Assembly (NCBI RefSeq): GCF_016127575.1
Contig: NZ_CP066019.1
Coordinates: 2,880,001 to 2,912,000, forward strand
Reading direction: 5' to 3'
Source of the DNA: Cupriavidus necator
GTDB lineage: Bacteria > Pseudomonadota > Gammaproteobacteria > Burkholderiales > Burkholderiaceae
Length of the DNA stretch: 32,000 bases
Program-made: the position numbers and the translations under genes
Shown: piece after piece, positions 2,908 through 27,706 of the stretch
How positions within the stretch are numbered: the stretch's first letter is position 1
Layout: each line of letters begins with the position of its first letter
The notes under the pieces: generated by a model
The model's input: only the letters and a program-made list of their open reading frames with translations
Database searches by the model: none
Told to the model about the DNA's origin: nothing

Positions 2908-3906
2908 TTATTTTGCCTGGCGAAATACACCGCGAGCCATATGTAATGCTGCGAACAACCGGTTTGAGATGTTGGAGAACGTGCGTTGCTGTCCTCCGCA
3001 GCTTCTTCTCACCGATTCAACAGACTGAATCATGCTGCCCTCGAAATCAAGGCAGTTTAATTTCAACTCGTTCCGGGTATATTGAATGGCATCCCAGATT
3101 AGTTTTATTCCGGCACCGCTTGTGCGCAGCTTCGGGTCCTCGCCGACCATGTGGACATAAGAGGACTTCTGGTCCCACGTTAAATAAAGCGCGGAATGTA
3201 TCTGGTTGTCATCGTCGACGGCCATGAAAATCTTTCTTGCATTTCTTTCCAGCAAGGCTTGGTCGTGTCTTTCTATAAAGCCAAAGGAATATGGCATTTT
3301 CATGCCCTGGCGATCAAAGGTCTTTTTGTTGATGGCGTAGAATTCTGATACATCATTGGTGAAGCGTGTTTTGACAATTTTCTCTGCTTTGCGAATCTTG
3401 TTGCGCGCGGCGCTGTTGAACCGGCTGAAGACACCGTCCAGATCGGCGATGTCATCGATAACGTAAGTGTAACGTACAGCCTCGGAAAATCCTTTCCAAT
3501 AGAATGGCAATAGATTTCTGAGGGAATGATGAATATTGAAGCTAACGACATGTGATTTTGGGAGCAGTGCCACGATTTCCCTGACTGCCTCCATTTCAAA
3601 ATCAATGCGATTGTGCTCGGATATATTCGACGGATAATTTAGCCAGAGCTGAAAGCTTTGCGTCAACTTTGGCATCCTTTGAATTATGAGTGGCCCCCTG
3701 CGTTCGGTGTAGTAAGGGAGTGCGGCAATTGGCTTGTTATTCTTCATGACAATCGCCGCGTCCCATTCGCCATTCTGGCAGACCGAGTCAAGCCACCAGT
3801 CTTTGGATGAGATCGCTATCTGCGGATTTTCCGAGCATATGGTGCGATATGCCTTCCTGGTCTCGCTTTCAGCGGTGATAGCTGGCACGGGCTTGGTTTG
3901 GCTCAT
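2908..3906 (-). CDS. FemAB/BioF2-like GNAT-superfamily acyltransferase (Acetyltransf_6-like), in a low-GC patch
   Basis: 332-aa ORF with ATG at 3904..3906 preceded by GAGGAA. The layout fits FemAB-like/CelD-like acyltransferases found in polysaccharide loci: ...FNSAARNKIRKAEK..., ...ALYLTWDQKSSYVHMVGEDPKLRTSGAGIKLIWDAIQY...LDFEGS. The family assignment rests on motif recall only. The DNA is clearly AT-richer than its flanks. Confidence 0.7.
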   Translation of the reverse strand: MSQTKPVPAITAESETRKAYRTICSENPQIAISSKDWWLDSVCQNGEWDAAIVMKNNKPIAALPYYTERRGPLIIQRMPKLTQSFQLWLNYPSNISEHNRIDFEMEAVREIVALLPKSHVVSFNIHHSLRNLLPFYWKGFSEAVRYTYVIDDIADLDGVFSRFNSAARNKIRKAEKIVKTRFTNDVSEFYAINKKTFDRQGMKMPYSFGFIERHDQALLERNARKIFMAVDDDNQIHSALYLTWDQKSSYVHMVGEDPKLRTSGAGIKLIWDAIQYTRNELKLNCLDFEGSMIQSVESVRRSCGGQQRTFSNISNRLFAALHMARGVFRQAK

Positions 3907-4105
3907 GATTCCTCACAACGCTCCATAGTTGGTTTCTCTCAGAAACACTCGCCTTGAGATATTGCCCCTGGCGGCCCCAGCATTTGCCTGCGAGGCCTTC
4001 CTTTTTTCGTTAAAGGAATTATTCCCGCGTGGTAGTGCGGTCGCAACGGGCCCGCGTGTGTCAGCGAACGCAGGATTGGCTCGCACTGGCTCATGCCGGT
4101 CGGCT

Positions 4106-6145
4106 TCAGCTCGCCTTGCTTGAATTCGACAGTGTTGCGAGTTGCGGGTCGGTGCCGATCTCCGGGGGCGGCTGCTGGCGCGATGCAACCCCGCGCAGTG
4201 CATGCTGCAACGGCTGGCTCGGCTCCCGCTGCGAGGGCGCCGCCACCTTGCGGCCCGGCGACTCCAGTGAGCTGTACGGCGCGTACTCGACTACCAGGCT
4301 CTGAATGACGGTCTGGATCTCGAGTTCGTCACGGGTATCGCAGGCGGCAAAGAGGCGCTCAAGCATCTCGTGCAACTCTGCCTCCGCGATGAGCGGTTCG
4401 TTCGAGCACAAGATGCGCTCATGCTCGCTGGCCGTCACCTCACCACCGATGAGGAGCTCTTCAAACAGCTTCTCTCCCGGGCGCAGCCCCACGACCTTGA
4501 TCTCGATGTCCCCGGCGGGGTTCTTGCGCGTCTTTTCCGTCAGGCCGGACATCTCGATCATCGTGCGGGCCAGGTCGATGATGCGGACGGGCTTGCCCAT
4601 GTCCAGCACGAAGACTTCCCCACCTTTGGCCATCGCGCCGGCCTGGATCACCAACTGGGCTGCTTCGGGGATCAGCATGAAGAAGCGGATGACGTCCGGA
4701 TGCGTGATCGTGACGGGCCCGCCCTCACGGATCTGTTTGCGGAACAGTGGTACCACGGACCCGGATGAGCCCAGTACATTGCCGAAGCGCACCATCGCGA
4801 ACGTTGTCCGCGTGTTGGGGCGCGTGGCTGCGGCTTGGAAAACGAGTTCCGCAATGCGCTTGCTGGCGCCCATCACGTTGGTGGGCCGTACCGCCTTGTC
4901 GGTGGAAACCAGCACGCAGGTCTGAACGCCGAAATGGTCTGCCAGATCGGCAATGGTCAGGGAGCCCAGCACATTGTTGCGGATCCCTTCGGGCATGTTC
5001 TTTTCGACCAGCGGCACATGCTTGTAGGCGGCGGCGTGATAGATGGTGTCGACCTGCTGGCCGCGCAGTGCGGCTGACACGGCAGTGGCGTCGCACACAG
5101 AGCCGATCCGCGCCGTGATCTGCAGGTCAGGGTAGCGCTGGCGCAGTTCCTGTTCGATCGCGTAGAGGGCATATTCGGAGTGGTCGAAGAGAATTAGGCG
5201 CTGGGGTTCCTGCGAAGCGATCTGACGGCACAGCTCCCTGCCGATGGAGCCACCCGCACCGGTCACCATGACCGTCTTGCGTTGCGTGCATTTGGCGAAC
5301 AGGTCTACCCGTGGCGGGACGATGTCACGGCCCAGCAAGTCTTCCACGCTGATATCCCGAATCGATTGCACGGTGATCTTGCGATCCACAAGCTCGAGAA
5401 GAGAGGGCAACGTGCGCACGCTGACCGAATAGCGGTGCAGCTTGTCGACGATCTGGCGGCGGCGCTCGATTGGCAGGGACGGAACGGCCAGTACGACTTC
5501 ATTGATGGCGTGCCGCTGGATCTCCTTGCGCACGTGGTTGCTGTGATGGACTGGAAGGTCGGCAACGACCTTGCCCTCCAGCGCGAAGTCATCGTCGAAG
5601 AAGCAGACGGCCTTGTGGCCCAGGCTGGCGCGCATGGCGATGGCGAGCTGGAAGCCGGCCTCGCCGGCGCCGAATATCCCCACGCGCAAGCTGGCGCGCT
5701 CGTTGCGGGCCAGCAGGCTCTGCCGCGTGCGCGTCAGCAAGGCGCGCGCCACGAAGCGCGAGATCACGACATAGGAAAAGGCGATGAACCAGTAGATCAG
5801 CAGGCCGGTGCGAGGCAGCCGGTCGAGGTGCATGAGGAACGACAGCGCATAGGTGAGTCCGACGATGCCGGCCAGGCTGGTGCCGGTGGTCCAAAGGACT
5901 TTCAGGTCGAAATACCGGACGACGGTCCGATACAGTCCGCTGAGCGAAAACACGGGAATCGTGCAGGCGGCAATGATCAGCGGCGGCGTGATGCCGTACT
6001 GTGCCAGCAACTCGAAGTTGCCGGCGCGCAGGAATAGTGCGAAAGCAAAGCACAGCGGCAGCGCAAGCAGGTCCGCCGCAATCATCAGCGCGACTTTGCG
6101 ACGTCTTGGCAGGGCAATCAGCCAGCGCGAGAGCGGTTTGGTCAT
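4106..6145 (-). CDS. Membrane-anchored UDP-HexNAc 4,6-dehydratase (CapD/PglF/WbpM family polysaccharide biosynthesis protein)
   Basis: 679-aa ORF with four to five N-terminal TM helices. It has the Rossmann motif VMVTGAGGSIGRELCRQI, the catalytic YxxxK in HAAAYKHVP and the STDKAVRPTNVMGASKRIAE signature. GGAGG lies 9 nt upstream of the ATG at 6143..6145. Confidence 0.9.
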   Translation of the reverse strand: MTKPLSRWLIALPRRRKVALMIAADLLALPLCFAFALFLRAGNFELLAQYGITPPLIIAACTIPVFSLSGLYRTVVRYFDLKVLWTTGTSLAGIVGLTYALSFLMHLDRLPRTGLLIYWFIAFSYVVISRFVARALLTRTRQSLLARNERASLRVGIFGAGEAGFQLAIAMRASLGHKAVCFFDDDFALEGKVVADLPVHHSNHVRKEIQRHAINEVVLAVPSLPIERRRQIVDKLHRYSVSVRTLPSLLELVDRKITVQSIRDISVEDLLGRDIVPPRVDLFAKCTQRKTVMVTGAGGSIGRELCRQIASQEPQRLILFDHSEYALYAIEQELRQRYPDLQITARIGSVCDATAVSAALRGQQVDTIYHAAAYKHVPLVEKNMPEGIRNNVLGSLTIADLADHFGVQTCVLVSTDKAVRPTNVMGASKRIAELVFQAAATRPNTRTTFAMVRFGNVLGSSGSVVPLFRKQIREGGPVTITHPDVIRFFMLIPEAAQLVIQAGAMAKGGEVFVLDMGKPVRIIDLARTMIEMSGLTEKTRKNPAGDIEIKVVGLRPGEKLFEELLIGGEVTASEHERILCSNEPLIAEAELHEMLERLFAACDTRDELEIQTVIQSLVVEYAPYSSLESPGRKVAAPSQREPSQPLQHALRGVASRQQPPPEIGTDPQLATLSNSSKAS

Positions 6146-6453
6146 TGGCCGGAACCTCCGCGCACCAGAACGGGCAGGGGCCTGGCGGCGACCAGGCTGC
6201 GATAGGGACGCCCCATTTGCGGGGCGGACAAAGAAGGTTGCGCACGGTTATGCATTGTCTTAAGGCTTCTTCTATGGGCAGCTCCACCGGCTGGTGGCCT
6301 CTGGAAGGGACATGCCCTTTCAGAGGCTTCCGATTTGCCCGTTTACCCGTCAGCGACTGGGTGCTTTCGACACCATTCCCGACTGAAACAATTATTGTTG
6401 TTGGTGCGTCCCTGGCAACGCAGCAGCGTGGGTTTGCGTACGCAGCGGCAGGT

Positions 6454-6491
6454 GGCGCAAAGGGCGTGGCGCCCGCCGCGCCCTTTGCGCC
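6454..6491. repeat. Perfect 13-bp inverted repeat (GGCGCAAAGGGCG-N12-CGCCCTTTGCGCC) in a divergent promoter region
   Basis: Read directly: 6454..6466 is the exact reverse complement of 6479..6491. It lies between the divergently transcribed dehydratase (start 6145) and aminotransferase (start 6625) genes. Confidence 0.6.
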
Positions 6492-6624
6492 TTAGTTGAG
6501 TGATCCAGGCCACATGGCGGCCTTCACCTGCCCATGCAAGTCTGGTTAGATGGATGCGTTCCCGGTACCCGGTCGGGTTCGTGCAGGGCACCCGCTCCGA
6601 CTTTCATTACTGAGGTGGACCACC

Positions 6625-7878
6625 ATGCTGGATACCAGTTTTTCTCCCTGGCCAAGTTTCACTGCCGACGAGGCGGCTGCCGTGCAGAAGGTGCTGCTGT
6701 CGAACCGGGTGAACTACTGGACCGGCTCTGAATGCCGGAAGTTCGAGGAGGAATTCGCCAGGTGGGCCGGGACGCCCTATGCGATCGCGCTGGCAAACGG
6801 GACACTTGCGCTCGATGTCGCGCTGAAGGCGCTGGACATTGGCCTTGGCGACGAGGTCGTGGTGACGCCGCGAACATTCATCGCCAGCATTTCAAGCGTG
6901 GTGAATGCGGGAGCAAAGCCGGTATTTGCAGACGTCGATCTTGCGAGCGGCAATCTTTCCGCGGTGACGATCAGCAAGGTTCTGACGCCAAGGACGCGAG
7001 CCGTCATATGCGTGCACCTTGCCGGCATACCCTGCGACATGGACCCGATCATGGCGCTGGCGCGCGAGCACGGCATCAAGGTGATCGAGGATTGTGCCCA
7101 GGCACATGGTGCGCGCTACAAAGGGCGTTCGGTCGGCTCGATCGGGGACGTGGGTGCATGGTCCTTCTGCCAGGACAAGATTATGACCACCGGCGGCGAG
7201 GGCGGCATGGTGACGACCAGCGCGAGGGACCTCTGGCTGCGCATGTGGTCGTACAAGGACCATGGCAAGAGCTGGGACGCTGTCTATGAGCGTCAGCACC
7301 CCCCGGGATTCCGGTGGTTGCACGAATCCTTCGGGACGAACTGGCGCATGATAGAAATGCAGGCGGTGATCGGGCGCATCCAGCTTGCGCGCATGAAGCA
7401 ATGGACAGCGCAGCGCACTGCCAATGCGGAGGTCATTGCCGGCGCGCTTCGGCAATGTGCTGCGGTCTGGTTGCCCGCCTGCCCACCGGATGCACAATCA
7501 GCCTGGTACAAGTTCTATGCATTCGTCCGCCCGGAATGGCTGAGGGATGGCTGGAGCCGTGACCGCATCGTGGCCGAGATCCAGGCAGGCGGCGTGCCCT
7601 GCTATGCGGGCGGCTGCTCGGAGGCTTATCTCGAGAAGGCGTTCGATTACACGGGCTGGCGCCCGCCGCACCGGTTGCCCAACGCCAGGCTGCTGGGTGA
7701 AAACAGCCTGATGCTGCTGGTGCATCCCACCCTGACCGACGCCGAGATTGCCCTGACTGCGCAGGTGCTGCGCGAGGTCATGCTTCGTGCAACGCTGCCG
7801 ACCGGTGCCGGGCGGGACGCCGACGGCGGGGTGGTGCCCGGCCTGGCGCAGGACTGCGCGGGCGCCATGCGGCGATGA
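6625..7878 (+). CDS. DegT/DnrJ/EryC1/StrS-family PLP-dependent sugar aminotransferase (PglE/WbpE-like)
   Basis: Start chosen at ATG 6625 (MLDTSFSPWPSF...), which is preceded by GAGGTGGA. The family N-terminus YWTGSECRKFEEEFARWAGTPYAIALANGTLALDVALKAL is present, as is the PLP-Lys region SFCQDKIMTTGGEGGMV. The 25 codons upstream in the track ORF look non-coding. Confidence 0.9.
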   Translation: MLDTSFSPWPSFTADEAAAVQKVLLSNRVNYWTGSECRKFEEEFARWAGTPYAIALANGTLALDVALKALDIGLGDEVVVTPRTFIASISSVVNAGAKPVFADVDLASGNLSAVTISKVLTPRTRAVICVHLAGIPCDMDPIMALAREHGIKVIEDCAQAHGARYKGRSVGSIGDVGAWSFCQDKIMTTGGEGGMVTTSARDLWLRMWSYKDHGKSWDAVYERQHPPGFRWLHESFGTNWRMIEMQAVIGRIQLARMKQWTAQRTANAEVIAGALRQCAAVWLPACPPDAQSAWYKFYAFVRPEWLRDGWSRDRIVAEIQAGGVPCYAGGCSEAYLEKAFDYTGWRPPHRLPNARLLGENSLMLLVHPTLTDAEIALTAQVLREVMLRATLPTGAGRDADGGVVPGLAQDCAGAMRR

Positions 7879-12913: not shown

Positions 12914-13357
12914 ATGAACCGCAGCGACGTCACCGACCTCATCATCGAAGCCAAGGTCACCCGCGGCATTGCCTGGGCGCAGGTGGCCGAACGCGTCGGC
13001 CGCAGCAAGGAATGGACAACCGCGGCGTGCCTGGGCCAGATGGCATTCGACGCCGCCGGCGCGCGCGCGGTGATGGAGCTGTTCGGGCTGCCGCCCGAGG
13101 CCGAGCCCTGGCTGCGCGAGGTGCCGTACAAGGGCTCGCTGCCGACGCAGGTGCCGGCCGATCCGCTGATCTACCGCTTCTACGAACTCATCAGCGTGTA
13201 CGGCACCACGTTCAAGGCGCTGATCCATGAAGAGTTTGGCGACGGCATCATGAGCGCGATCGACTTCCGCATGGACCTGCAGCGCGAGCCCGATCCCAAT
13301 GGGGACCGGGTGCGCATCGAGATGTCGGGCAAGTTCCTGCCCTACAAGACTTACTGA
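12914..13357 (+). CDS. cynS: Cyanase (cyanate hydratase)
   Basis: 147 aa from ATG 12914, with GGAG 6 nt upstream. MNRSDVTDLIIEAKVTRGIAWAQVAERVGRSKEWTTAACLGQ...DPLIYRFYELISVYGTTFKALIHEEFGDGIMSAIDF...GKFLPYKTY matches CynS along its whole length. Confidence 0.95.
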   Translation: MNRSDVTDLIIEAKVTRGIAWAQVAERVGRSKEWTTAACLGQMAFDAAGARAVMELFGLPPEAEPWLREVPYKGSLPTQVPADPLIYRFYELISVYGTTFKALIHEEFGDGIMSAIDFRMDLQREPDPNGDRVRIEMSGKFLPYKTY

Positions 13358-14583
13358 TGGGCGACCGCGCGCACGGGCGGCAGCGCAAGCGACACGCCAT
13401 AGCGCGCCGGATCCAGGCGCATGGTCAGCACGCCCACCAGCGCGGCGCAGGCCAGGTGGTACCACCAGCCGGCGGCGAAGCCGCCGGTGCGTTCGTGCAG
13501 CATGGCGGTGATCCAGGGCGCCAGCGACGCCAGCAGGAAGCCGCCGCCTTGCATCAGGGCGCTCAGCGCGCCGGCGCTGTCGGGGTCCGGCAGGTGGTCC
13601 AGTGCCACCACCAGGTATAAGGCAAAGCAGCCACCGAGGCCGGCGCCGCCGATCACGGCCCACGCGTGCGGCGCGGCGTCGGGCCACAGCGCCAGTCCAC
13701 CGAAGCCCGCCACCTGCATGGCTAGTGCCAGCGCCATCCAGGCGCGGCGGTCCAGGCTGCGCGCGGCCAGCACCGGCAGCAGCAGCGCCGCGGCGGCCTG
13801 CGCCACCGCCATCAGCGCCACCAGCGACCCGCTCGCCGAAGCGCTCCAGCCGTGGTCCTGGTAGAACGGTGCGAGCCACGCCACCAGCGACGCATAGCCG
13901 CCGTTCATCACGCCAAAGCAGGCCATCAGCAGCCAGGTGCGCGGACGCCGCAACAGCGTGCGCGTTGCCCTCGCCGGGCGGCTTGCCGGCACCGCGGGGC
14001 CGCGCGCCGCGGTGCGCGGCAATGCCACCCAGGCCAGCGCCAATGCTGCCAGCGCAGGCACGGCCCACAGCGCCAGCGCATCGCGCCAGCTGCCGGCCAA
14101 TGCCGTCACGTAGGGCGACAGCTGCGCGCCGAGCGCACCGCCGCCCATCAGCGCGGCGGAGTACAGCCCCATCACCGGCGCCACGCGCCCCGGGAATTCC
14201 TGCTTGACCAGGCCCGGGCAGGCGGCCTGCACCACGGCCACGCCCAGCCCGCACAGCGCGGCCGAGGCGATCAGCCAGGTGCCGTCCGCCACGCCCAGCC
14301 GCAGCGCGCAGCCGGCACCGAGCAAGGCCAGCGCGCCCAGCACCGCGGTGCGCGCACCCAGCCGCTCGCGGATGGCCGGCCCGAAGAACGCGCCCGCGCC
14401 CATCAGCAGCATCGGCAGCAAGGTCAGCCAGGCCATGCCCTGGTAGCTCAGGCCGGTGCCACTGCGGATGGCCGGGGCCAGCGGCCCCACCGCGGTCAGG
14501 AACGGCCGCAGGTTCAGGCCGATGCCCGCGACCGCGGCCAGCACCAGCCAGCGCGGGGTGGTGCCGCGCGCGCCCTCAGCCAC
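13351..14583 (-). CDS. cynX: MFS transporter, CynX/NimT (cyanate transporter) family
   Basis: 410 aa with about 12 TM helices. The N-terminus LNLRPFLTAVGPLAPAIRSGTGLSYQGMAWLTLLPMLLMG is typical of CynX-like MFS proteins. The GTG start at 14583 overlaps the stop of the upstream deaminase gene (GTGGCTGA). The 3' end overlaps the cynS stop convergently by 7 nt. Confidence 0.8.
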   Translation of the reverse strand: MAEGARGTTPRWLVLAAVAGIGLNLRPFLTAVGPLAPAIRSGTGLSYQGMAWLTLLPMLLMGAGAFFGPAIRERLGARTAVLGALALLGAGCALRLGVADGTWLIASAALCGLGVAVVQAACPGLVKQEFPGRVAPVMGLYSAALMGGGALGAQLSPYVTALAGSWRDALALWAVPALAALALAWVALPRTAARGPAVPASRPARATRTLLRRPRTWLLMACFGVMNGGYASLVAWLAPFYQDHGWSASASGSLVALMAVAQAAAALLLPVLAARSLDRRAWMALALAMQVAGFGGLALWPDAAPHAWAVIGGAGLGGCFALYLVVALDHLPDPDSAGALSALMQGGGFLLASLAPWITAMLHERTGGFAAGWWYHLACAALVGVLTMRLDPARYGVSLALPPVRAVAHQ

Positions 14584-15034
14584 GGGGCGCGCGCGGGCCG
14601 TAGAGCTGCGCCGCAGAGAGGTCGACCGCCACCCGCGTGAGCGGCAGCGGCGGCGGGTTCAGCGACAGGCGCAGTGCCTGGTAGGCGGCCTCGCTCGACA
14701 TGCCGTAGGGCGCGGCATCGTGGTTGTCGAAGGCGTAGTAGACCGCCTGCACGCCGGCCATGGTCATCGCCGCCAGGCACATCGGGCAGGGGTGGCCGCT
14801 GGCATAGACCACGCTGCCGCGCAGGTCGGGGCGGCCCAGCTTGCGCGCGGCGGCGCGCACCGCCTCCATCTCGGCATGGGTGGTGGGGTCGTGGCTGTGG
14901 ACGATGTCGTTGACGCCGGTGGCGACGGCCTCGCCGTCGAGCACCAGCACGGCACCGAAAGGGCGCGCGCCACGGTCACGGTTGGCCGCGGCAAGGCGAA
15001 CCGCCTCGCGCATGAATTCCTGGTGAGTGGTCAT
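14576..15034 (-). CDS. Zinc-dependent nucleoside/nucleotide deaminase (CMP/dCMP-deaminase fold, TadA/guanine deaminase-like)
   Basis: Start at ATG 15032..15034 (MTTHQEFMREAVRLAAAN...). Zinc and catalytic motifs HAEMEAV and PCPMC are present. The upstream part of the track ORF looks non-coding. Confidence 0.85.
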   Translation of the reverse strand: MTTHQEFMREAVRLAAANRDRGARPFGAVLVLDGEAVATGVNDIVHSHDPTTHAEMEAVRAAARKLGRPDLRGSVVYASGHPCPMCLAAMTMAGVQAVYYAFDNHDAAPYGMSSEAAYQALRLSLNPPPLPLTRVAVDLSAAQLYGPRAPRG

Positions 15035-21777: not shown

Positions 21778-23292
21778 ATGAAAAAGACCTTACTGGCGTC
21801 GGCTATCGCCATGGCATTTGCGGGACAGGCCTGGGCAAATCCGACCAATAACAACGACGTGGTAAGAGGTGGCGGCGACAACACGCAAACCGCCACAGCG
21901 ACCTCGACGCAGAGTGGCAGCGGCGCGGCGGCAAACGAATATTCGACCGCAGTCCAGGCCAATGACAGCAGCACCAACACCAGAACCACCACGGTTGGCG
22001 TCAACAAGACCAAGACCACGACCAACTCGAACAACAGGAGCAGGATCGACTTTGACCATGGCGTAGGCAACGCGGGCTCCAACGGTGGCAGCGCAACCTC
22101 CAGCGTAAGCAACGCCTTCAACACCAGCAAGGCACTGGCGATCAGCAAGCTGAATGGCACGGTTTCCAACAACAGCATTGGCCCGATCGGCAATTACGCC
22201 ACCAACTGGGGTAACGCGAATGGTGCAGCCGGTGGCCGGGGCGGCAATGGCTTTGGCGGTACCGGCGAAGGCGGGCGCGGCGGCAACGGCGGCAACGGCG
22301 GTAACGGCGGCAGCGGCGGCTCCGGTGGCAGCGCTACCAACGGTAGCGCCACCAATGGCGACGCCACCAACGGCAGCGCCAACGCTGGTAATGGCGGTGC
22401 CGGCGGCAAGGCGATTGGCTGGGCCGGCAGTGGCGGTGACGGCAAGGCATATGGCGGCAGCGCACTCTCCGCAGCGGGCAGCAAGGGCGGCAGCGGCGGC
22501 GATGCTTATGGCAAGGGCGGCGGCGCTCTGAGCGCATCGCTCGGCGCCGGCGGCCGCGGCGGCAGTGCCGGCGCGATCGGCGGTGGTGGCCTGGGTGCCA
22601 GCGGCGCCCTGGGCGGCTTGGCAGGTTCGGCCGGCGGCTCAGGTGGTAGCAGCGGCAATGCCAACGGTGCGGGTGGCGACACTACCACTGGCGGCGCAGG
22701 CGGCGCAGGCGGCGCAGCGGCCGGTACCAACACGGCTGGCGCAGGCACCGGTTCGGGCGGCGCAGGTACCGCGAGTGGCGGTGCGGGCGGTGCCGGAACG
22801 GCAGCTGCAGGCGCGACCGGCGGAGCCGGCAGCGGCACCGGCGGTGCCGGTGGCGCGGGCGGCGCGGCGACCTCGACCGCAACGGCGGGCGCGGCAAGCG
22901 GCACCGGCGGCGCGGGCGGCACGCAAGCCAGCGTTGGCGGCGCGGGCGGTACTGGCGGTTCGGCCACGAACGGCAGCGCAACGAGTTCGGCCTCCAATGG
23001 CAGCTCCACGGCTGGCAACGGTGCGGTGGGTGCTACCGGCGGCGCGGGCGGCGCGGGCGGCACTGGCAATGGCGGCACTGGCGGCACCGGCAACGGCGCA
23101 GTCGGCGGCGCTGGCGGTAATGGCGGTTACAACATTGTTGACGCGGGCACCTTCAATATGTCCAACACCATGACCAGCGTTGGTCAAACGGCGGCGGGCA
23201 TCATGATGGCCAACCAGAACAGCGGCGCTGCCTCGCTCGTGCAGCAAAGCGTGAACGTTCAGGCCAACCTGCAGGTCGGCGGCAACCGGTAA
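21778..23292 (+). CDS. Secreted 504-aa glycine-rich (PGRS-like) repeat protein; putative major fibre/matrix subunit of the Fap-like operon
   Basis: Start at ATG 21778 with GGGAG 6 nt upstream. The signal peptide is MKKTLLASAIAMAFAGQAWA|N. There is a DVVRGG motif at aa 27-32. The N-terminal region is Thr/Asn/Ser-rich. By hand count, aa 151-450 contain about 134 Gly in 300 residues, as GGAGG/GGNGG/GGSGG units. No charged residue occurs between aa 302 and 454, and the mature part has no Cys. The C-terminal core NIVDAGTFN...AAGIMMANQNSGAASLVQQSVNVQANL is paralogous to gene 2. Confidence 0.85.
   Translation: MKKTLLASAIAMAFAGQAWANPTNNNDVVRGGGDNTQTATATSTQSGSGAAANEYSTAVQANDSSTNTRTTTVGVNKTKTTTNSNNRSRIDFDHGVGNAGSNGGSATSSVSNAFNTSKALAISKLNGTVSNNSIGPIGNYATNWGNANGAAGGRGGNGFGGTGEGGRGGNGGNGGNGGSGGSGGSATNGSATNGDATNGSANAGNGGAGGKAIGWAGSGGDGKAYGGSALSAAGSKGGSGGDAYGKGGGALSASLGAGGRGGSAGAIGGGGLGASGALGGLAGSAGGSGGSSGNANGAGGDTTTGGAGGAGGAAAGTNTAGAGTGSGGAGTASGGAGGAGTAAAGATGGAGSGTGGAGGAGGAATSTATAGAASGTGGAGGTQASVGGAGGTGGSATNGSATSSASNGSSTAGNGAVGATGGAGGAGGTGNGGTGGTGNGAVGGAGGNGGYNIVDAGTFNMSNTMTSVGQTAAGIMMANQNSGAASLVQQSVNVQANLQVGGNR
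22279..22377 (+). repeat. In-frame tandem codon repeats inside the Gly-rich gene
   Basis: Six 9-nt units occupy 22279..22332: GGCGGCAAC, GGCGGCAAC, GGCGGTAAC, GGCGGCAGC, GGCGGCTCC, GGTGGCAGC. Three 15-nt units encoding ATNG[S/D] occupy 22333..22377. Looser GGAGG-type periodicity continues to about 23127. Confidence 0.8.
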
Positions 23293-23305
23293 GGCGTGCA
23301 GCCAC

Positions 23306-23338
23306 GGTCTGGCCCGGGACTTGTGCCCGGGCCAGACC
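23306..23338 (+). terminator. Strong hairpin 14 nt after the gene 1 stop (intra-operon attenuator or partial terminator)
   Basis: GGTCTGGCCCGGG-ACTTGTG-CCCGGGCCAGACC, a perfect 13-bp GC-rich stem read directly. No U-tract follows it. Confidence 0.5.
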
Positions 23339-23359
23339 GGCAGCTCGCACTCATGCCGG

Positions 23360-23402
23360 CAGGACCGGCGCCCGCATCCTGTGTGCGGGCGCGCGGGTCC
23401 TG
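23360..23402 (+). terminator. Second compound hairpin in the gene 1 / gene 2 spacer
   Basis: CAGGACC-G-GCGCCCGCA-TCCTGTG-TGCGGGCGC-GCG-GGTCCTG. The inner 9-bp and outer 7-bp stems are both perfect. No U-tract follows. Confidence 0.4.
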
Positions 23403-23477
23403 TCATGCCCCAAGCAAGCCTGATTGCCTTGCAGCCGTCCGGATGGGGGCGGCCGGCAGGCAAGGGGAGACGACATC

Positions 23478-23912
23478 ATGCAATCGGTCCGCTTCGCCGT
23501 CGGCGCATTCGCGACGGTCTTACTCGCCTGGCCAGTGCTGCAGGCGCACGCTGAGCCGCCAGGGCTGGACGCCGCCATGGCAGCGGCGCGCGCTGCTTCT
23601 GGCGCTGCCCCGGACACGGCTGCAATCACCGCACAGCCGACGGCCGCAACTTCCTTGTTCGGAGGGGTGGCGAAAGCCGTACCCGTGTCTAAACTGGATG
23701 ACATCCGTGGCGGCGCCGAGGTCACGGTCAACGATATGCGCCTGCACGGTACCGTGGCCGACAACGCCGCGGTCAATATTCTGTCCGGCACCAACAACAT
23801 CGCGGACGGGGCCTTCTCGAATGCGGCAGGGATTCCCACCGCGATCCAGAACTCGGGCTCCAACGTACTGATCCAGAACGCCACTATCGTCAACGTCCAG
23901 TTCAAGCAATGA
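23478..23912 (+). CDS. Small secreted Asn/Gln/Ala-rich protein with a double-glycine-type pro-region (short paralogue of gene 1; FapB-like role proposed)
   Basis: Start at ATG 23478, preceded by AGGGGAGA. The signal peptide is MQSVRFAVGAFATVLLAWPVLQAHA|E. An Ala/Pro/Thr-rich pro-region follows, ending in KLDDIRGG at aa 72-79 (nt 23691..23714). The 65-aa C-terminal core is AEVTVNDMRLHGTVADNAAVNILSGTNNIADGAFSNAAGIPTAIQNSGSNVLIQNATIVNVQFKQ. Confidence 0.8.
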   Translation: MQSVRFAVGAFATVLLAWPVLQAHAEPPGLDAAMAAARAASGAAPDTAAITAQPTAATSLFGGVAKAVPVSKLDDIRGGAEVTVNDMRLHGTVADNAAVNILSGTNNIADGAFSNAAGIPTAIQNSGSNVLIQNATIVNVQFKQ

Positions 23913-24607
23913 AGCCGCTGCGAAACCTGTTGGCGTCTGTACCGTTCTTGCTGGCCGCGGGGGGCGTTCCATGTGCCCAGGCTGCCGACACCCTGATATA
24001 CGGGCCGGTCGGCGAGTCCTACAACGTCCGGGTCACGAGCGTGCGCGAGGCTCGCTTCAAGTCCACGATCCGGCAGCAGTTCGACTTCAGCTGCGGCTCG
24101 GCCGCGGTGGCCACGCTGCTGAGCTACCAGTACGGCCATCCGATGAATGAGGCCACGGTCTTCCAGAACATGTACCTCAACGGCGACCAGCAGAAGATCC
24201 GCGCCGAGGGGTTCTCGCTGCTCGACATGAAGCGCTTCCTGGCCGCGCTCGGCTATGAGGCGGACGGCTACGAGCTGCCACTGTCCAAGCTGGAAGAGAC
24301 GCAGGTGCCGGCCATCGTGCTGATCGTGGAGAACGGTTACCACCATTTCGTGGTGGTCAAGGGCGTGAAGGGCGACCGCGTGCTGATCGGCGATCCCGCA
24401 CGCGGCACGCGCGCGATGTCACGCGAGCATTTCGAGCAGATCTGGGACAGCCAGCTGCTGTTCGTGATCCATAACCGCACCGAACGGGCGCGGTTCAACC
24501 TTGCAGCCGACTGGCGCGTTGCGCCGAGCGGTCCTTACTGGATGGGAGTCAACCGGGATAGCTTGTTCTTCACCGTCATGCCCAAGCATGGCGCGGGCGA
24601 TTTTTGA
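23909..24607 (+). CDS. Stand-alone, signal-peptide-bearing C39-family cysteine peptidase (FapD-like)
   Basis: The ATG overlaps the gene 2 stop (ATGA at 23909..23912). The signal peptide is MKPLRNLLASVPFLLAAGGVPCAQA|A. C39 motifs are Gln plus the catalytic Cys in RQQFDFSCGSAAVATLL (Cys62, nt 24092..24094), and His/Asp in GYHHFVVVKGVKGDRVLIGDPA. No ABC-transporter domain is attached. Confidence 0.85.
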   Translation: MKPLRNLLASVPFLLAAGGVPCAQAADTLIYGPVGESYNVRVTSVREARFKSTIRQQFDFSCGSAAVATLLSYQYGHPMNEATVFQNMYLNGDQQKIRAEGFSLLDMKRFLAALGYEADGYELPLSKLEETQVPAIVLIVENGYHHFVVVKGVKGDRVLIGDPARGTRAMSREHFEQIWDSQLLFVIHNRTERARFNLAADWRVAPSGPYWMGVNRDSLFFTVMPKHGAGDF

Positions 24608-24617
24608 GGAACGCATC

Positions 24618-25463
24618 ATGTTGCAGACTTCCTTCCCGACCCCAGCAGCCCCTCGCAGCGCCGGTCATGCGGCCGCGGCGATGCTGCTCGGGGCCGGTTT
24701 GGCCTGTGCCGGCACGGCGCAGGCCACCATGCTGCCACAGCCCGACGCCCTCGACGCGTCGGCGCTTCCATTGCAGGGGGCCATGCCCTCGAGCGACGGG
24801 CAGGACCAAAACCCTCTGGCTGCCGCACGCGGCAGCATGGCCGGCTGGAAACCGGTAGCACACGAAAAACTCGACGACATGCGGGGCGGCTTCGAAGTGC
24901 CGGGCCTGCAGGTTTCGTTCGGTATCGAACGCGCGGTGTACATCAACGGGGCCCTGGTGGTTGCCACCAGCATTAACATCCCCGATGTCAGCCGTATCAC
25001 CGCCGACCAGGCTGCGCGGCTTGCCTCGACGCTGGGCCCGGCCATCGTTGCCAGCACCAATGCGGCGGTCGCCAACGCGCTGGCGGCGGCGGGCGCGGCC
25101 GGTTCGGATGGGAGCGCCACCTCGGCGGCCAATGGCGCCTCGGCCAGCAGCACCGGCACGTCCGGGGCCGGTTCGGGCGCCAGCGGTGCGGCGGGCTTGC
25201 CGGCGGCGGTGGTGAATACGGCCACCGGTCAGGTCGTGAGCAATGGGCTGTTGAACGTGATCCAGAACGGCCCGGGCAATGCGGCATCGGTGGGATCGCT
25301 GGCGGGGACGCCAACGACCGTGATCCAGAACACCTTGAACAACCAGAGCATCCGGAGCCTGATGACAATCGACGCAAGCGTAAATACGCTGCAGGCATTC
25401 CGGTCGCAGTTGGCCAACACCACGCTGAACAACGCGCTGATGCGGGCCGCAAGCATGAGGTAG
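24618..25463 (+). CDS. Secreted 281-aa Ala/Gly/Ser/Asn-rich protein with a double-glycine-type pro-region (third cargo paralogue, in the FapE position)
   Basis: Start at ATG 24618 with GAGGA 7 nt upstream, 10 nt after the peptidase stop. The signal peptide ends ...AGLACAGTAQA|T. KLDDMRGG lies at aa 84-91 (nt 24867..24890). There is a central low-complexity AAAGAAGSDGSATSAANGASASSTGTSGAGSGASGAAG stretch. The C-terminal region has LAGTPTTVIQNTLNNQ and LLNVIQNGPGNAAS motifs related to genes 1 and 2. Confidence 0.8.
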   Translation: MLQTSFPTPAAPRSAGHAAAAMLLGAGLACAGTAQATMLPQPDALDASALPLQGAMPSSDGQDQNPLAAARGSMAGWKPVAHEKLDDMRGGFEVPGLQVSFGIERAVYINGALVVATSINIPDVSRITADQAARLASTLGPAIVASTNAAVANALAAAGAAGSDGSATSAANGASASSTGTSGAGSGASGAAGLPAAVVNTATGQVVSNGLLNVIQNGPGNAASVGSLAGTPTTVIQNTLNNQSIRSLMTIDASVNTLQAFRSQLANTTLNNALMRAASMR

Positions 25464-25539
25464 TCGTAGCGAGGCATCGGGCAGTACAGGTCGCAGGCTC
25501 CTGCAAGAACAGCCTGCCGTCCCGGGGGAGGAAGACGTC

Positions 25540-26979
25540 ATGAAGAAGCGGTCGATGCAGGGCATTCGCAATGCGGGATGCTCGACGTTACTGTTGCTCG
25601 GCGGCCTGGCGCAGGCCCAGACGCCGCCGGATGCGGGACCACCCGCAGCCGGACTGGAAGCACTGCAGAAGGAGCTTGCCGAACAGGCCACCCAGCTCGA
25701 CGCCATGAAGCGGGCGCTGGCCGAACAGGAGGCGCTGATCCGCGAACTGCGTAACGTGATCGGCACCGAGGTGCTGGCCAACAAGCGCGGCGGCCAGCGC
25801 GCGGGGCCAGGCGTGTCGCCGTCCGACAATGCCACCAACGCCGCTACCGCGGCGGCCGCTGCCAGCGCCACCCAGTCAGCGCCCAACGCGGTCAACAACC
25901 CGCAGCAGATCATTCTCCAGCCACCGCAGGACATGGCCCAGGGTCCGCAGGCGGGCGAGTCCGCCGACCGGCAGACCGTGGCCCTGGAAGAACCCGTGGG
26001 CCGCCCGCCGGAGGAAGACCGCCGTCCGCCTGAGATCGCGCCGATCATCGACCAGCCCGGCGTGCTGACCGCCCAGGGCAAGCTGGTGATCGAGCCCGGC
26101 TTCCAGTACGGCTATTCGTCCAATAACCGCGTCGCGCTGGTCGGCTACACGGTCATCCCGGCCATCCTGATCGGCCTGGTCGATGTGCGCGAAGTCAAGA
26201 CCTCGACCTACATCCCGTCGGTAGCGTTTCGCTACGGCCTGACCAAGCGGCTGGAAATCGAAGCCAAGGTGCCTTACGTGCACTCATCGGGCCAGACAGT
26301 CAGCCGCGAGGTCTTCACCGGCACGGCCGTCGACCGCGTGTTCAATGCGAGCGGCAGCGGTATCGGCGACGTCGAGGCGACGGTGCGCTACCAGCTCAAC
26401 TACGGCAACGAGAAGATTCCGTACTTCGTCGGCTGGCTGCGCTACAAGTCCAATACCGGCACCGACCCGTTCGAGGTCGTGACCGACTGCGTGACGCGCT
26501 GCGTGGGCAATGCCACCGGCACCGGCCTGCCGCTCGGGTTGCCCACCGGCACCGGCTTCCAGGCGATCCAGCCCGGCATCACCTGGCTGCTGCCGACTGA
26601 CCCGGCGGTGTTCTTCGGCACCTTCAGCTACCTGCACAACTTTGCGCGCGACAACGTGAGCCGCACCGTGCTGAACGGCGAGAAGGAGAATCTCGGCAAG
26701 ATCGCCCCCGGCGACATCTTCGAGTTCAGCTTCGGCATGGGCCTGTCGCTCAATGAGAAGGCGTCGTTCAGCATCGGCTATGACCAGGCCATCATCTGGC
26801 CGACCAAGCAGAACGGCCAGACCGTGCCGGGCTCGGTGCGCGTGACCCAGGGCACCTTGCTGGTGGGCTATTCGTACCGCTTCAACAACCGCTACACGGT
26901 GAACCTTTCAGTGGGTGCGGGGCTGACGCGCGACACCCCCGACCTGCAGGTGAACCTGCGCCTGCCAATCACTTTCTGA
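25540..26979 (+). CDS. Outer-membrane beta-barrel channel with N-terminal coiled coil and long linker (FapF-like / MetA-pathway-type OM transporter)
   Basis: GGGGGAGGAAG lies upstream of ATG 25540. The signal peptide is ...LLLLGGLAQA|Q. The heptad-like helix GLEALQKELAEQATQLDAMKRALAEQEALIRELRNVIG spans aa 38-75. A Pro/Ala/Gln/Asn-rich linker of about 95 aa follows. The remainder shows alternating-hydrophobic beta-strand patterning (VIEPGFQYGYSS, GIGDVEATVRYQL, LLVGYSYRF) and ends in the OMP-type terminus NLRLPITF. Confidence 0.85.
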   Translation: MKKRSMQGIRNAGCSTLLLLGGLAQAQTPPDAGPPAAGLEALQKELAEQATQLDAMKRALAEQEALIRELRNVIGTEVLANKRGGQRAGPGVSPSDNATNAATAAAAASATQSAPNAVNNPQQIILQPPQDMAQGPQAGESADRQTVALEEPVGRPPEEDRRPPEIAPIIDQPGVLTAQGKLVIEPGFQYGYSSNNRVALVGYTVIPAILIGLVDVREVKTSTYIPSVAFRYGLTKRLEIEAKVPYVHSSGQTVSREVFTGTAVDRVFNASGSGIGDVEATVRYQLNYGNEKIPYFVGWLRYKSNTGTDPFEVVTDCVTRCVGNATGTGLPLGLPTGTGFQAIQPGITWLLPTDPAVFFGTFSYLHNFARDNVSRTVLNGEKENLGKIAPGDIFEFSFGMGLSLNEKASFSIGYDQAIIWPTKQNGQTVPGSVRVTQGTLLVGYSYRFNNRYTVNLSVGAGLTRDTPDLQVNLRLPITF

Positions 26980-27013: not shown

Positions 27014-27038
27014 CGTGCCCCGCATGTGCGGGGGCACG
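27014..27038 (+). terminator. GC-rich hairpin 35 nt after the barrel-gene stop (candidate operon terminator)
   Basis: CGTGCCCCGC-ATGT-GCG(G)GGGCACG, a 10-bp stem with one bulged G. No clear U-tract follows. Confidence 0.4.
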
Positions 27039-27193: not shown

Positions 27194-27706
27194 ATGCGCA
27201 AACGCATCTTCTGGTTGTTGCCCGACCTGGCGAGTGCCCGTCGCACCATGGACGACCTGCTGCTTGCCCGGCTCGAGAACCGCCACATCCACTTCGTGGC
27301 GCGCGACGGCTCCGACATGACCGGCCTGCATGAAGCCAACCTGTTCCAGACCTCCGACATCGTGCATGCCGCCGAGATGGGCTTGATGGTCGGCGGCGGC
27401 GTGGGCGTCGTGGCCGGCGTCGTGGTGGCGATGTTCCCGATCGTCAGCGACACCCCGCAGTGGGGCCTCGTCGGCGTGCTGGCGGTGCTGGGCGCGGTGT
27501 TTGGCGCGTGGGCCTCGAGCATGATCGGCAGTTCGGCACCCAACAGCCGGCTGCGTGCATTCGAGAAGGACATCGAGGCCGGCAAGATCCTGCTGATGGT
27601 CGACGTGCCGCGCAGCCGTGTCGAGGAAATCGAAACCCTGCTCGCGAACGCGCATCCGGAAGCCAGCTTTGCGGGGTTGGACCCGGCTGTGCCGGCTTTC
27701 CCCTGA
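27194..27706 (+). CDS. Small membrane protein of unknown function (two Gly-zipper-like TM segments)
   Basis: Start at ATG 27194 with AAGGAGAG upstream. It is 170 aa, with a soluble N-terminal domain, hydrophobic GLMVGGGVGVVAGVVVAMFPI and WGLVGVLAVLGAVFGAWASSMIG segments, and a soluble C-terminal domain. The upstream codons of the track ORF were rejected. Confidence 0.7.
   Translation: MRKRIFWLLPDLASARRTMDDLLLARLENRHIHFVARDGSDMTGLHEANLFQTSDIVHAAEMGLMVGGGVGVVAGVVVAMFPIVSDTPQWGLVGVLAVLGAVFGAWASSMIGSSAPNSRLRAFEKDIEAGKILLMVDVPRSRVEEIETLLANAHPEASFAGLDPAVPAFP

Follow-up and report, generated by a model that had tools for sequence, protein, structure and literature searches.

Organization of the g1–g5 cluster

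A 32,000-nt stretch of Cupriavidus necator DNA (contig NZ_CP066019.1 of assembly GCF_016127575.1, positions 2,880,001–2,912,000 of the forward strand; hereafter the window, whose numbering is used throughout) carries five co-directional genes, here called g1 to g5. These genes had been predicted from the DNA sequence to form an undescribed operon that resembles the functional-amyloid (fap) genes of Pseudomonas and encodes three secreted paralogues, a periplasmic C39 peptidase, and a coiled-coil outer-membrane barrel. Here we describe the genes and their homologues, and propose that they probably encode a Fap-type secretion system. All five open reading frames (ORFs) were found on the + strand at positions 21778–26979. 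They agree with the gene calls (504, 144, 232, 281, and 479 amino acids) of the public record AM260480.1, C. necator H16 chromosome 2, where the barrel protein has identical neighbors (~57.6–79 kb). The features of the cluster are as follows.

21778–23292, + strand: g1, long predicted secreted cargo protein of 504 amino acids (from ORF, composition, and family alignment)
23305–23339, + strand: hairpin 1 in the g1–g2 intergenic region; perfect 14-bp stem, −38.1 kcal/mol, z = −5.2
23368–23392, + strand: hairpin 2 in the g1–g2 intergenic region; −28.9 kcal/mol, z = −3.6
23478–23912, + strand: g2, short predicted secreted cargo protein of 144 amino acids; signal peptide, variable pro-region, leader motif, and 65-residue core
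23694–23714, + strand: candidate leader motif of g2, L73-D-D-I-R-G-G79, with the proposed g3 cleavage site after G79
23909–24607, + strand: g3, FapD/FilB-like C39 cysteine peptidase of 232 amino acids, predicted periplasmic (from Pfam and NCBIfam)
24618–25463, + strand: g4, predicted secreted protein of 281 amino acids in the fapE position; signal peptide, variable pro-region, leader motif, and conserved domain
24870–24890, + strand: candidate leader motif of g4, L85-D-D-M-R-G-G91; register W-15, V-12, L-7, M-4, G-2, G-1
25540–26979, + strand: g5, FapF-type outer-membrane transporter of 479 amino acids (from NCBIfam and PDB)
25654–25761, + strand: coiled coil of g5, about residues 39–74; six heptads, followed by a low-complexity linker
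25774–25794, + strand: leader-like motif L79-x3-R83-G-G of g5 at the end of the coiled coil (residues 79–85)
26017–26976, + strand: plug and 12-strand-type barrel of g5, residues 160–479 (from alignment to FapF in the PDB)
27014–27038, + strand: hairpin 3, located 3′ of g5; −28.2 kcal/mol, z = −3.0

The gene spacing was as originally predicted: the start of g3 overlaps the stop of g2 by 4 nt (ATGA), so the two genes are translationally coupled, and gaps of 10 and 76 nt separate g3 from g4 and g4 from g5, respectively. Shine-Dalgarno-like sites were seen upstream of g1, g2, g4, and g5. The hairpins expected after g1 and g5 were present, but none of them has a T-run behind it, and a simple terminator scan did not flag them. 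The hairpin at 27014–27038 is likely the end of the transcription unit. The pair at 23305–23392 may act as a partial terminator or an mRNA-stabilizing element that raises the expression of g1 over that of the downstream genes; strong hairpins 3′ of g1 would fit a higher expression of g1 as the major subunit. N-terminal signal peptides were assigned to all five products solely from the appearance of their n-, h-, and c-regions and from hydropathy. No gene for an ABC transporter, an immunity protein, or a membrane-fusion protein was found in the conserved unit.

A stand-alone C39 peptidase and a FapF-type barrel

The 232-residue g3 product matched the Pfam family Peptidase_C39 (PF03412; E = 8.9e-25) and has no ABC domains, in agreement with the predicted C39 peptidase without an ABC moiety. 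Its N-terminus carries a signal-like h-region. In a profile search with hidden Markov models (HMMs), suggested earlier as a check of the peptidase family, the best NCBIfam models of g3 were FapD (E = 6.7e-43; 146 bits, cut-off 330) and FilB (E = 1e-39; 137 bits), and g3 showed ~30–33% identity with FapD. The best PDB matches were double-glycine protease domains, namely those of LahT (6MPZ) and PCAT1 (4RY2). Residues Q56, C62, H146, and D162 were invariant in an alignment of g3 with FapD of Pseudomonas and Aeromonas, FilB, and two alphaproteobacterial homologues.

The top NCBIfam model of g5 was FapF (E = 9.2e-42; 143 bits, equivalog cut-off 700), followed at a distance by FilC (E = 5.8e-10; 39 bits, cut-off 630). 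Residues 160–479 aligned to the FapF crystal constructs 5O65, 5O67, and 5O68 (E = 7e-28 for 5O67). The coiled coil comprises six heptads with L39, L46, L53, L60, I67, and I74 at the a positions and L42, Q49, M56, Q63, and L70 at the d positions. The predicted resemblance of this coiled-coil barrel to FapF was thereby supported by the NCBIfam and PDB matches as well as by the heptads. Both g3 and g5 are clear homologues of FapD and FapF, and the outcome named earlier as a refutation, in which the peptidase and barrel fall into unrelated families, did not arise. At the end of the coiled coil, g5 bears a leader-like motif whose L79 and R83 were invariant in 13 diverse barrels; the form L-x3-R-[GA]-[GAR] was found in 76 of the 80 orthologues, and the canonical FapF of Pseudomonas lacks it. 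Rouse et al. speculated that FapD may cut FapF near G-G motifs (PMC5557850). As a speculation, the motif of g5 could be a docking site for the peptidase, a pseudo-substrate, or a cleavage site.

A pair of cysteines, C317 and C321 (‘TDCVTRCVGN’, ~nt 26488–26502), is invariant across the g5 family and has no counterpart in the aligned FapF. The pair may form a disulfide specific to the g5 branch.

The predicted cargo proteins g1 and g2

The g1 product consists of 31% glycine, has no cysteine, and contains only 6% charged residues. A signal peptide and a stretch rich in Ser, Thr, and Asn are followed by a conserved mid motif (‘FSNxFNxSKAIAxSxLxGxV...IGNxAxNxGNANGG’ in the family alignment), a variable Gly-rich linker, and a conserved C-terminal motif (‘VDAGTFxMSNxMTSVGQxAAGIMxAxQNSGxxSLxQQxVNVQANL’). 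A protein of 220–627 amino acids that matched both the N- and C-motif HMMs of g1 was encoded at 70 of the 80 loci compared (see below), and the ten loci without a match were mostly at contig ends.

The core of g2 is a 65-residue segment rich in Asn, Gln, Gly, and Ala (‘...GTVADNxAVNxxTGSNxIxDGAFxNAxGxPTVIQNSGSNVLIQNATIVNVQF’), which is almost invariant from Cupriavidus to Rhodanobacter. Like g1, g2 has no cysteine, and if it is cut at the leader motif, its mature product of ~65 amino acids is rich in Gly, Ala, Ser, and Asn. All 441 homologues of g2 are named ‘hypothetical’.

The original prediction described g1, g2, and g4 as three Cys-free paralogues. Profile comparison with hhalign strongly connected g2 with g4 (97%, E = 5e-11) and moderately connected the g2 core with the C-terminus of g1 (74%, E = 2.7e-5, 53% identity over 36 columns). 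The match of g2 to the g1 mid motif reached 12% (E = 0.0024), and no relation between g1 and g4 was detectable by hhalign, so the claim holds unevenly for the three pairs. As to cysteines, it held for g1, g2, and the mature form of g4; one cysteine is present in the signal peptide of g4. From these alignments, g1 reads as a g2-like core (‘LxGTVxxN...’ and ‘xGxF...AAGIxxxxQNSGxxxLxQxxxVNVQ’) that appears to be split by a variable Gly-rich linker. By analogy only, this would be the same design principle as that of FapC relative to FapB.

Pfam and NCBIfam reported no domain in g1, g2, or g4. The Pfam result is uninformative because Pfam is also blank for the canonical FapB, FapC, and FapE. In contrast, the NCBIfam result is meaningful: the FapA, FapB, FapC, and FapE models missed all 65 cargo-family members scanned (40 g1/g2 and 25 g4) at E ≤ 10, and the same models matched the Pseudomonas proteins with 156–351 bits (FapB 281, FapC 287) and the divergent Aeromonas FapE (2e-12) and FapB (8e-22, 78 bits). 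A single FilE match in the g1 family (E = 0.84, 1 of 21 members) was regarded as noise.

g4 and its relation to FapE

The g4 product has a conserved domain, ‘GLxVSFGIERAVYINGxL...IPD...VIQNTLNNQxIxSLTTIxxxVNTL’, which includes a species-specific insert rich in Ala, Ser, and Gly. A profile search of 1.84 billion representatives showed that the g4 family comprises 1314 clusters at 50% identity, and the 150 matches listed from this search were all close family members. An N-terminal motif is common to g4 (‘WKPVAHEKLDDMRGGFEVPGLQVSFGIE’) and FapE (‘FKPIEMNDAELAQLRGRFVMPGRIVSFGIV’). In FapE, the homologous motif takes the form ‘L-x-x-L-R-G-R-F...SFGI’, and the segment around it in Pseudomonas FapE is ‘...AELAQLRGRFVMPG’.

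With signal peptides included, hhalign related the g4 and FapE families at 88% (E = 3e-6); without signal peptides, the value was 41% (E = 2.8e-4, 27 columns, 41% identity). The hhalign profiles of FapE and of FapB/C are narrow (Pseudomonas and one Aeromonas) because the metagenome scan for canonical fap operons yielded Pseudomonas loci only, 81–96% identical to FapF of strain UK4; the canonical operons used for comparison were thus one Aeromonas caviae record and 80 Pseudomonas metagenome loci. Local HMM cross-scores between the g4 family and FapE were just 9–19 bits. The NCBIfam FapE model matched none of 25 g4 members and matched the Aeromonas FapE at 2e-12, and in database-scale HMMER searches the FapE HMM and the g4 family did not retrieve each other. 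Since HMMER gave no link at that scale, the connection between g4 and FapE rests on hhalign, the motif, and synteny. We therefore treat g4 as a probable distinct family with a motif-level and syntenic relationship to FapE.

A candidate double-glycine-type leader in g2 and g4

In g2, L73, R77, G78, and G79 were invariant among 19 diverse homologues, and in the g4 family alignment L85, R89, G90, and G91 were invariant. The pattern L-x3-[RS]-G-G occurred in all 76 distinct g2 orthologues and in 76 of 77 distinct g4 orthologues from the 80 loci, and in the g4 family, 139 of 145 representative clusters had R-G-G. The motif marks an abrupt switch in conservation: in g2 it lies at the border where pairwise identity rises from 16% in the pro-region to 67% in the core, and in g4 identity rises from 14% upstream to 69% in the motif (~15% to 63–69% for both). 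Counted from the second Gly, the residues of g2 are I/Y/L (−4), L (−7), and V/M/L (−12). In both proteins the leader is internal, located downstream of the Sec signal and the variable pro-region.

Double-glycine leaders with the same hydrophobic register are found in the substrates of ComA, LahT, and PCAT and are cut by C39 peptidases. Judging from this similarity, the motif of g2 and g4 would be a double-glycine-type leader and an expected substrate of a C39 peptidase such as g3. The Gly at −2 was kept in all variants compared, including S-G-G in g2 of Rhodanobacter and Dyella, R-G-R in FapE, A-G-[KR] in the alphaproteobacterial short cargo, and L-x3-T-G-Q in the N-terminus of FilA (DUF6160) of A. 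baumannii (‘MDDAALSAATGQDG’). The last two variants give hints that the leader may be common to the whole FapD/FapF-type superfamily.

In Pseudomonas, FapD functions in the periplasm, secretion of FapC depends on the catalytic Cys of FapD, FapE alone lacked N-terminal peptides in whole-cell mass spectrometry, and FapD's target is described as still unclear, the Fap proteins having no canonical C39 sites (PMC5557850). The g2/g4 family appears to have a canonical site at the place where FapE has its homologous N-terminal motif.

A similar leader was considered for g1. The sequence ‘NDVVRGG’ of the window is not conserved among g1 orthologues, and this candidate was dropped.

Conservation of the cluster

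The barrel family comprises >3960 homologues, and at least 555 species genomes (one genome per species) contain a barrel relative. Eighty loci of these genomes were kept for synteny analysis by BLAST of all ORFs. At least 70 of the 80 sampled species loci, in Burkholderiales and Xanthomonadales, had the cluster as a unit, so the arrangement is not due to chance, and the gene-neighborhood search proposed earlier did find the C39 peptidase and the coiled-coil barrel recurring together. The five genes are co-linear (g1-g2-g3-g4-g5) in Cupriavidus and in the six Xanthomonadales genera Lysobacter, Luteimonas, Pseudoxanthomonas, Rhodanobacter, Dyella, and Luteibacter. In Burkholderia (including B. 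contaminans, B. ubonensis, and B. pyrrocinia), Paraburkholderia, and Ralstonia, the g1–g4 block lies on the opposite strand to g5, convergent or divergent and always adjacent; the barrel gene must therefore have its own promoter there. Since the unit survives such rearrangement, the five genes are considered to be a functional unit. Divergent versions of the cluster were found in Herminiimonas and other Burkholderiales, and the layout of long cargo, short cargo, C39 peptidase, E-like protein, and barrel was also found on two plasmids, of Polymorphobacter and Croceicoccus (Alphaproteobacteria). The genes that flank the cluster in the window are not conserved beyond Cupriavidus. The host genera include Cupriavidus, the Burkholderia cepacia complex, Ralstonia, Pandoraea, Lysobacter, and Rhodanobacter, which represent soil, rhizosphere, and opportunistic-pathogen lineages.

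Two single records deserve mention. The record CP158804.1, named ‘Ralstonia pickettii strain RAL3 chromosome 2’, has a co-linear locus whose g3 and g5 proteins are 94–97% identical to those of the window and is probably a misnamed Cupriavidus. A Vibrio sp. plasmid of 136 kb (NZ_CP071844.1) encodes at 5884–6879 a 331-residue FapF-like ‘transporter’ without a coiled coil; the gene adjoins recombinase and terminase genes, and no C39 gene is listed nearby in its incomplete gene table.

Comparison with known systems

The gene order peptidase, secreted protein, and barrel was predicted to be like that of FapD-FapE-FapF, and it is: g3 is FapD-like, g4 occupies the fapE position, and g5 is FapF-like. 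Common to the two systems are a stand-alone C39 peptidase that has a catalytic Cys and a Sec signal for the periplasm, an outer-membrane barrel preceded by a coiled coil at the N-terminus and equipped with linker and plug, and, between their genes, a secreted protein with the N-terminal motif of FapE. Both also have a long and a short low-complexity cargo protein, the long one with a variable linker, and no inner-membrane ATPase in the unit. The three differences claimed at the outset proved real. FapA is missing, with no NCBIfam match, an hhalign probability <1%, and no extra conserved ORF in the unit; according to a 2018 review, no other fap gene is missing as often as FapA (PMC6173800). The long cargo precedes the short one, and it is Gly-rich. 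Beyond these, g2 is paralogous to the E-like g4 and not to the long cargo alone, no relation of g1 and g2 to the FapB/C repeats was detected, the leader has R-G-G where FapE has R-G-R, and the Cys pair of g5 is absent from the aligned FapF segment.

With the C39 domains of PCAT/AMS exporters (PCAT1 4RY2, LahT 6MPZ, and ComA), g3 shares the peptidase fold family and catalytic residues, and the leader shares G-G and the hydrophobic −4/−7/−12 positions. However, the peptidase of PCAT/AMS systems forms the N-terminal part of an ABC exporter and acts in the cytoplasm, whereas g3 is predicted to be periplasmic and is unfused. Moreover, the leader here is internal, after a Sec signal and a pro-region, and export over the outer membrane would occur through a β-barrel without an ATP source. 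The Fil system (NCBIfam pilus_FilA-F) likewise combines a FapD-like C39 peptidase (FilB) with a FapF-like barrel (FilC); it differs in its cargo and accessory genes (FilA/DUF6160, FadL-like FilD, FilE, and FilF), and the similarity of g5 to FapF is much greater than that to FilC. FilA, FilD, and FilF had no match in any NCBIfam scan of the cargo families. Curli is similar in concept, with Sec-dependent export of unfolded N/Q/G-rich subunits and a major subunit plus nucleator, but its pore is unrelated and it has no peptidase; no Curlin_rpt or Csg match was obtained with Pfam and NCBIfam.

Earlier surveys probably encountered such loci. In Dueholm 2013 (PMC3792158), 96% and 69% of the matches of the FapD and FapF HMMs, respectively, were ‘false positives’, read as larger families, and the 2018 review reports co-localized fapD/fapF homologues in further phyla (PMC6173800). 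The g1–g5 cluster is very probably among these ‘false-positive’ FapD/FapF matches and the fapD-fapF pairs <5 kb apart of Dueholm 2013 and Rouse 2018. Since unexplained FapD/FapF-like pairs had thus been noticed, their existence is not new, only their content: in the portions of these reports that we cite, neither the accompanying cargo nor the leader motif nor the five-gene architecture is described.

Proposed mechanism

The homologies of g3 and g5, the conservation of the five genes as a unit, and the invariant motif and its position are the observations from which a model can be built. We propose, with a probability of about 0.6, that the locus specifies a self-contained secretion system of the Fap type, which depends on Sec, acts at the outer membrane, and has its own cargo. 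Sec would carry all five products into the periplasm. There, g3 would recognize the internal leader of g2 and g4 through L-7, the hydrophobic −4 residue, and the G-G of −2/−1, and cut after G-G. The g5 barrel would be a trimer whose periplasmic coiled coil and linker probably capture the substrates, the peptidase, or both, and which passes the unfolded, Cys-free, charge-poor g1, g2, and g4 to the surface, where they would assemble into a fiber or matrix layer. We infer the cleavage, the passage through g5, the fiber or amyloid-like assembly, and the following division of labor among the cargo proteins. The abundant subunit would be g1, whose conserved N/Q-rich motifs at the ends and variable linker rich in Gly would be comparable to the repeats and variable linkers of FapC. 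The 65-residue core of g2 would serve as nucleator or adaptor, the role of FapB, and g4 could be a FapE-like accessory or initiator protein. On the basis of sequence, the cluster would then be an uncharacterized and widespread sister variant of Fap-type secretion with a putative fiber or matrix function.

A broader generalization is possible, although we hold it only tentatively. Fap, Fil, and the g1–g5 family may be branches of one general two-step secretion pathway, in which an internal double-glycine-type leader (L-x-x-hydrophobic-x-G-G) becomes exposed in the periplasm once Sec has exported the protein, acts as the outer-membrane export signal, and is read and cut by a FapD-like peptidase that hands the unfolded cargo to a FapF-like trimer. 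The L-x3-R-G-[GA] motif of the barrel would dock or regulate the peptidase, and the FapD substrate would be the ‘L-x-x-L-R-G-R’ of FapE.

Several points weigh against the proposed Fap-type system. The candidate site departs from strict G-G in some homologues, with R at −1 in canonical FapE (R-G-R) and L-x3-A-G-[KR] in the alphaproteobacterial short cargo, so the motif may signal docking instead of cleavage. No conserved leader motif is present in g1, and the model therefore does not explain how g1 reaches the barrel. Comparisons with Pfam, NCBIfam, and hhalign detected no similarity between the cargo and the repeats of FapB/C or curlin; against the narrow FapB/C profiles, g2 gave a non-significant <4% and g1 gave 15% (E = 0.0017) with FapC, and amyloid formation by the cargo is suggested by analogy. 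AlphaFold2 with family alignments gave no confident monomer fold for g2 and g4 (predicted local distance difference test scores of 49 and 40, respectively); such models are compatible with disordered secretion substrates, and published FapC monomers are likewise disordered (PMC12459412), but the models are uninformative and not evidence for such substrates. A consensus scan found no sigma-70-like promoter at the operon, and the argument for co-transcription of the five genes consists of spacing and synteny. Finally, our literature search found no paper that mentions the locus, no description of the cargo families, the leader, or the five-gene architecture, and nothing relevant on FilB/FilC or recent FapD/FapE work. 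Together with the lack of a curated family in Pfam and NCBIfam, this agrees with the original prediction of an undescribed system.

Among other explanations, the same machinery might export non-polymerizing surface or matrix proteins, for instance an adhesin rich in glycine, a coat, or a layer anchored to the surface, instead of amyloid-like fibers. The evidence for the machinery is the same in this case, and the lack of Fap or curlin repeat similarity, the flexible Gly-rich region that dominates g1, and the globular-looking core segment of g4 (‘SFGIERAVYINGxLV...IPD’) would agree with it, as would the Acinetobacter Fil system, which is annotated as a putative pilus system and has the same peptidase/barrel pair. 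We nevertheless regard it as unlikely because the g2 core and g1 termini, which are rich in N/Q/G/A/V and of strand-turn type, are near-invariant across orders, a pattern typical of subunits that template themselves, no fold is predicted for the monomers, and the long/short pair parallels FapC/FapB. The cluster might instead be a diverged orthologue of the canonical fapABCDEF amyloid system of Pseudomonas: FapD and FapF were the best NCBIfam matches, the order of peptidase, E-like protein, and barrel is that of fapDEF, the N-terminal motif of FapE recurs in g4, and the long and short cargo mirror FapC and FapB. However, g3 and g5 scored far under the equivalog cut-offs (146 vs. 330 and 143 vs. 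700 bits), which indicates a sister system rather than a Fap orthologue. The FapA/B/C/E models missed g1, g2, g4, and the 65 family members with positive controls, hhalign of g1 or g2 against FapB/C gave ≤15% probability, and FapE and the g4 family did not find each other at database scale. Furthermore, the cluster is present in B. contaminans, B. ubonensis, and B. pyrrocinia, yet the B. cepacia complex has no fap genes according to Dueholm 2013 (PMC3792158). Orthology to fap is thus improbable.

The combination of a C39 peptidase and a G-G leader is also the hallmark of how class II bacteriocins and microcins mature, and the mature g2 of ~65 amino acids, rich in Gly, Ala, Ser, and Asn, could be regarded as a secreted microcin/bacteriocin-like or signaling peptide. 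Such a role for g2 is quite improbable: the conserved unit contains no gene for immunity, an ABC transporter, or a membrane-fusion protein, the precursors bear both a Sec signal and an internal leader, the core hardly varies between Cupriavidus and Rhodanobacter whereas toxins evolve fast, and the conserved g1 (220–627 amino acids) and g4 families would be left unexplained. Very improbable, finally, is membership in the Acinetobacter Fil (filABCDEF) putative pilus family, to which the FilB match of g3 (E = 1e-39), the FilC match of g5 (E = 5.8e-10), and the L-x3-T-G-Q of FilA at a comparable position might point. The FilC score of g5 was 39 bits, with the cut-off at 630, an E-like gene is missing between the peptidase and barrel genes of the Fil operon, and the FilA (DUF6160), FadL-like FilD, FilE, and FilF of that operon are not present here. 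We accordingly favor a separate Fap-type secretion system with its own cargo.

Neighboring gene and composition of the window

The next gene 3′ of the operon is the following.

27194–27706: protein of 170 amino acids with a Gly/Val-rich hydrophobic stretch

This gene adjoins the cluster only within Cupriavidus, and for this reason its product is probably not part of the secretion system. Elsewhere in the window, the GC content drops to 0.48 at 3001–4000, compared with ~0.65–0.70 elsewhere, and reaches 0.71–0.76 at 13001–15000, with an AT skew of +0.19 to +0.23.

Annotation and significance of the cluster

In NCBI and UniRef, g5 is labeled ‘acetate kinase’ in dozens of genomes of Cupriavidus, Paraburkholderia, Burkholderia, Pararobbsia, Lysobacter, and Pseudoxanthomonas. 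NCBI labels g4 ‘flagellin’ in many genomes of Cupriavidus; in one case the label is ‘negative regulator of sigma E activity’. No acetate kinase domain in g5 and no flagellin domain in g4 was found in the Pfam and NCBIfam scans. The names ‘acetate kinase’ and ‘flagellin’ are wrong, and the former is a propagated mis-annotation.

The leader motif offers a candidate answer to the question of the FapD substrate, since it proposes a precise cleavage site for both the Fap and the g1–g5 systems. The cluster also defines a widespread, unnamed envelope system and corrects its mislabeled components. As C. necator H16 is an industrial chassis, an operon for fiber or matrix secretion would bear on its aggregation and biofilm behavior, and the operon could be used to secrete unfolded proteins.

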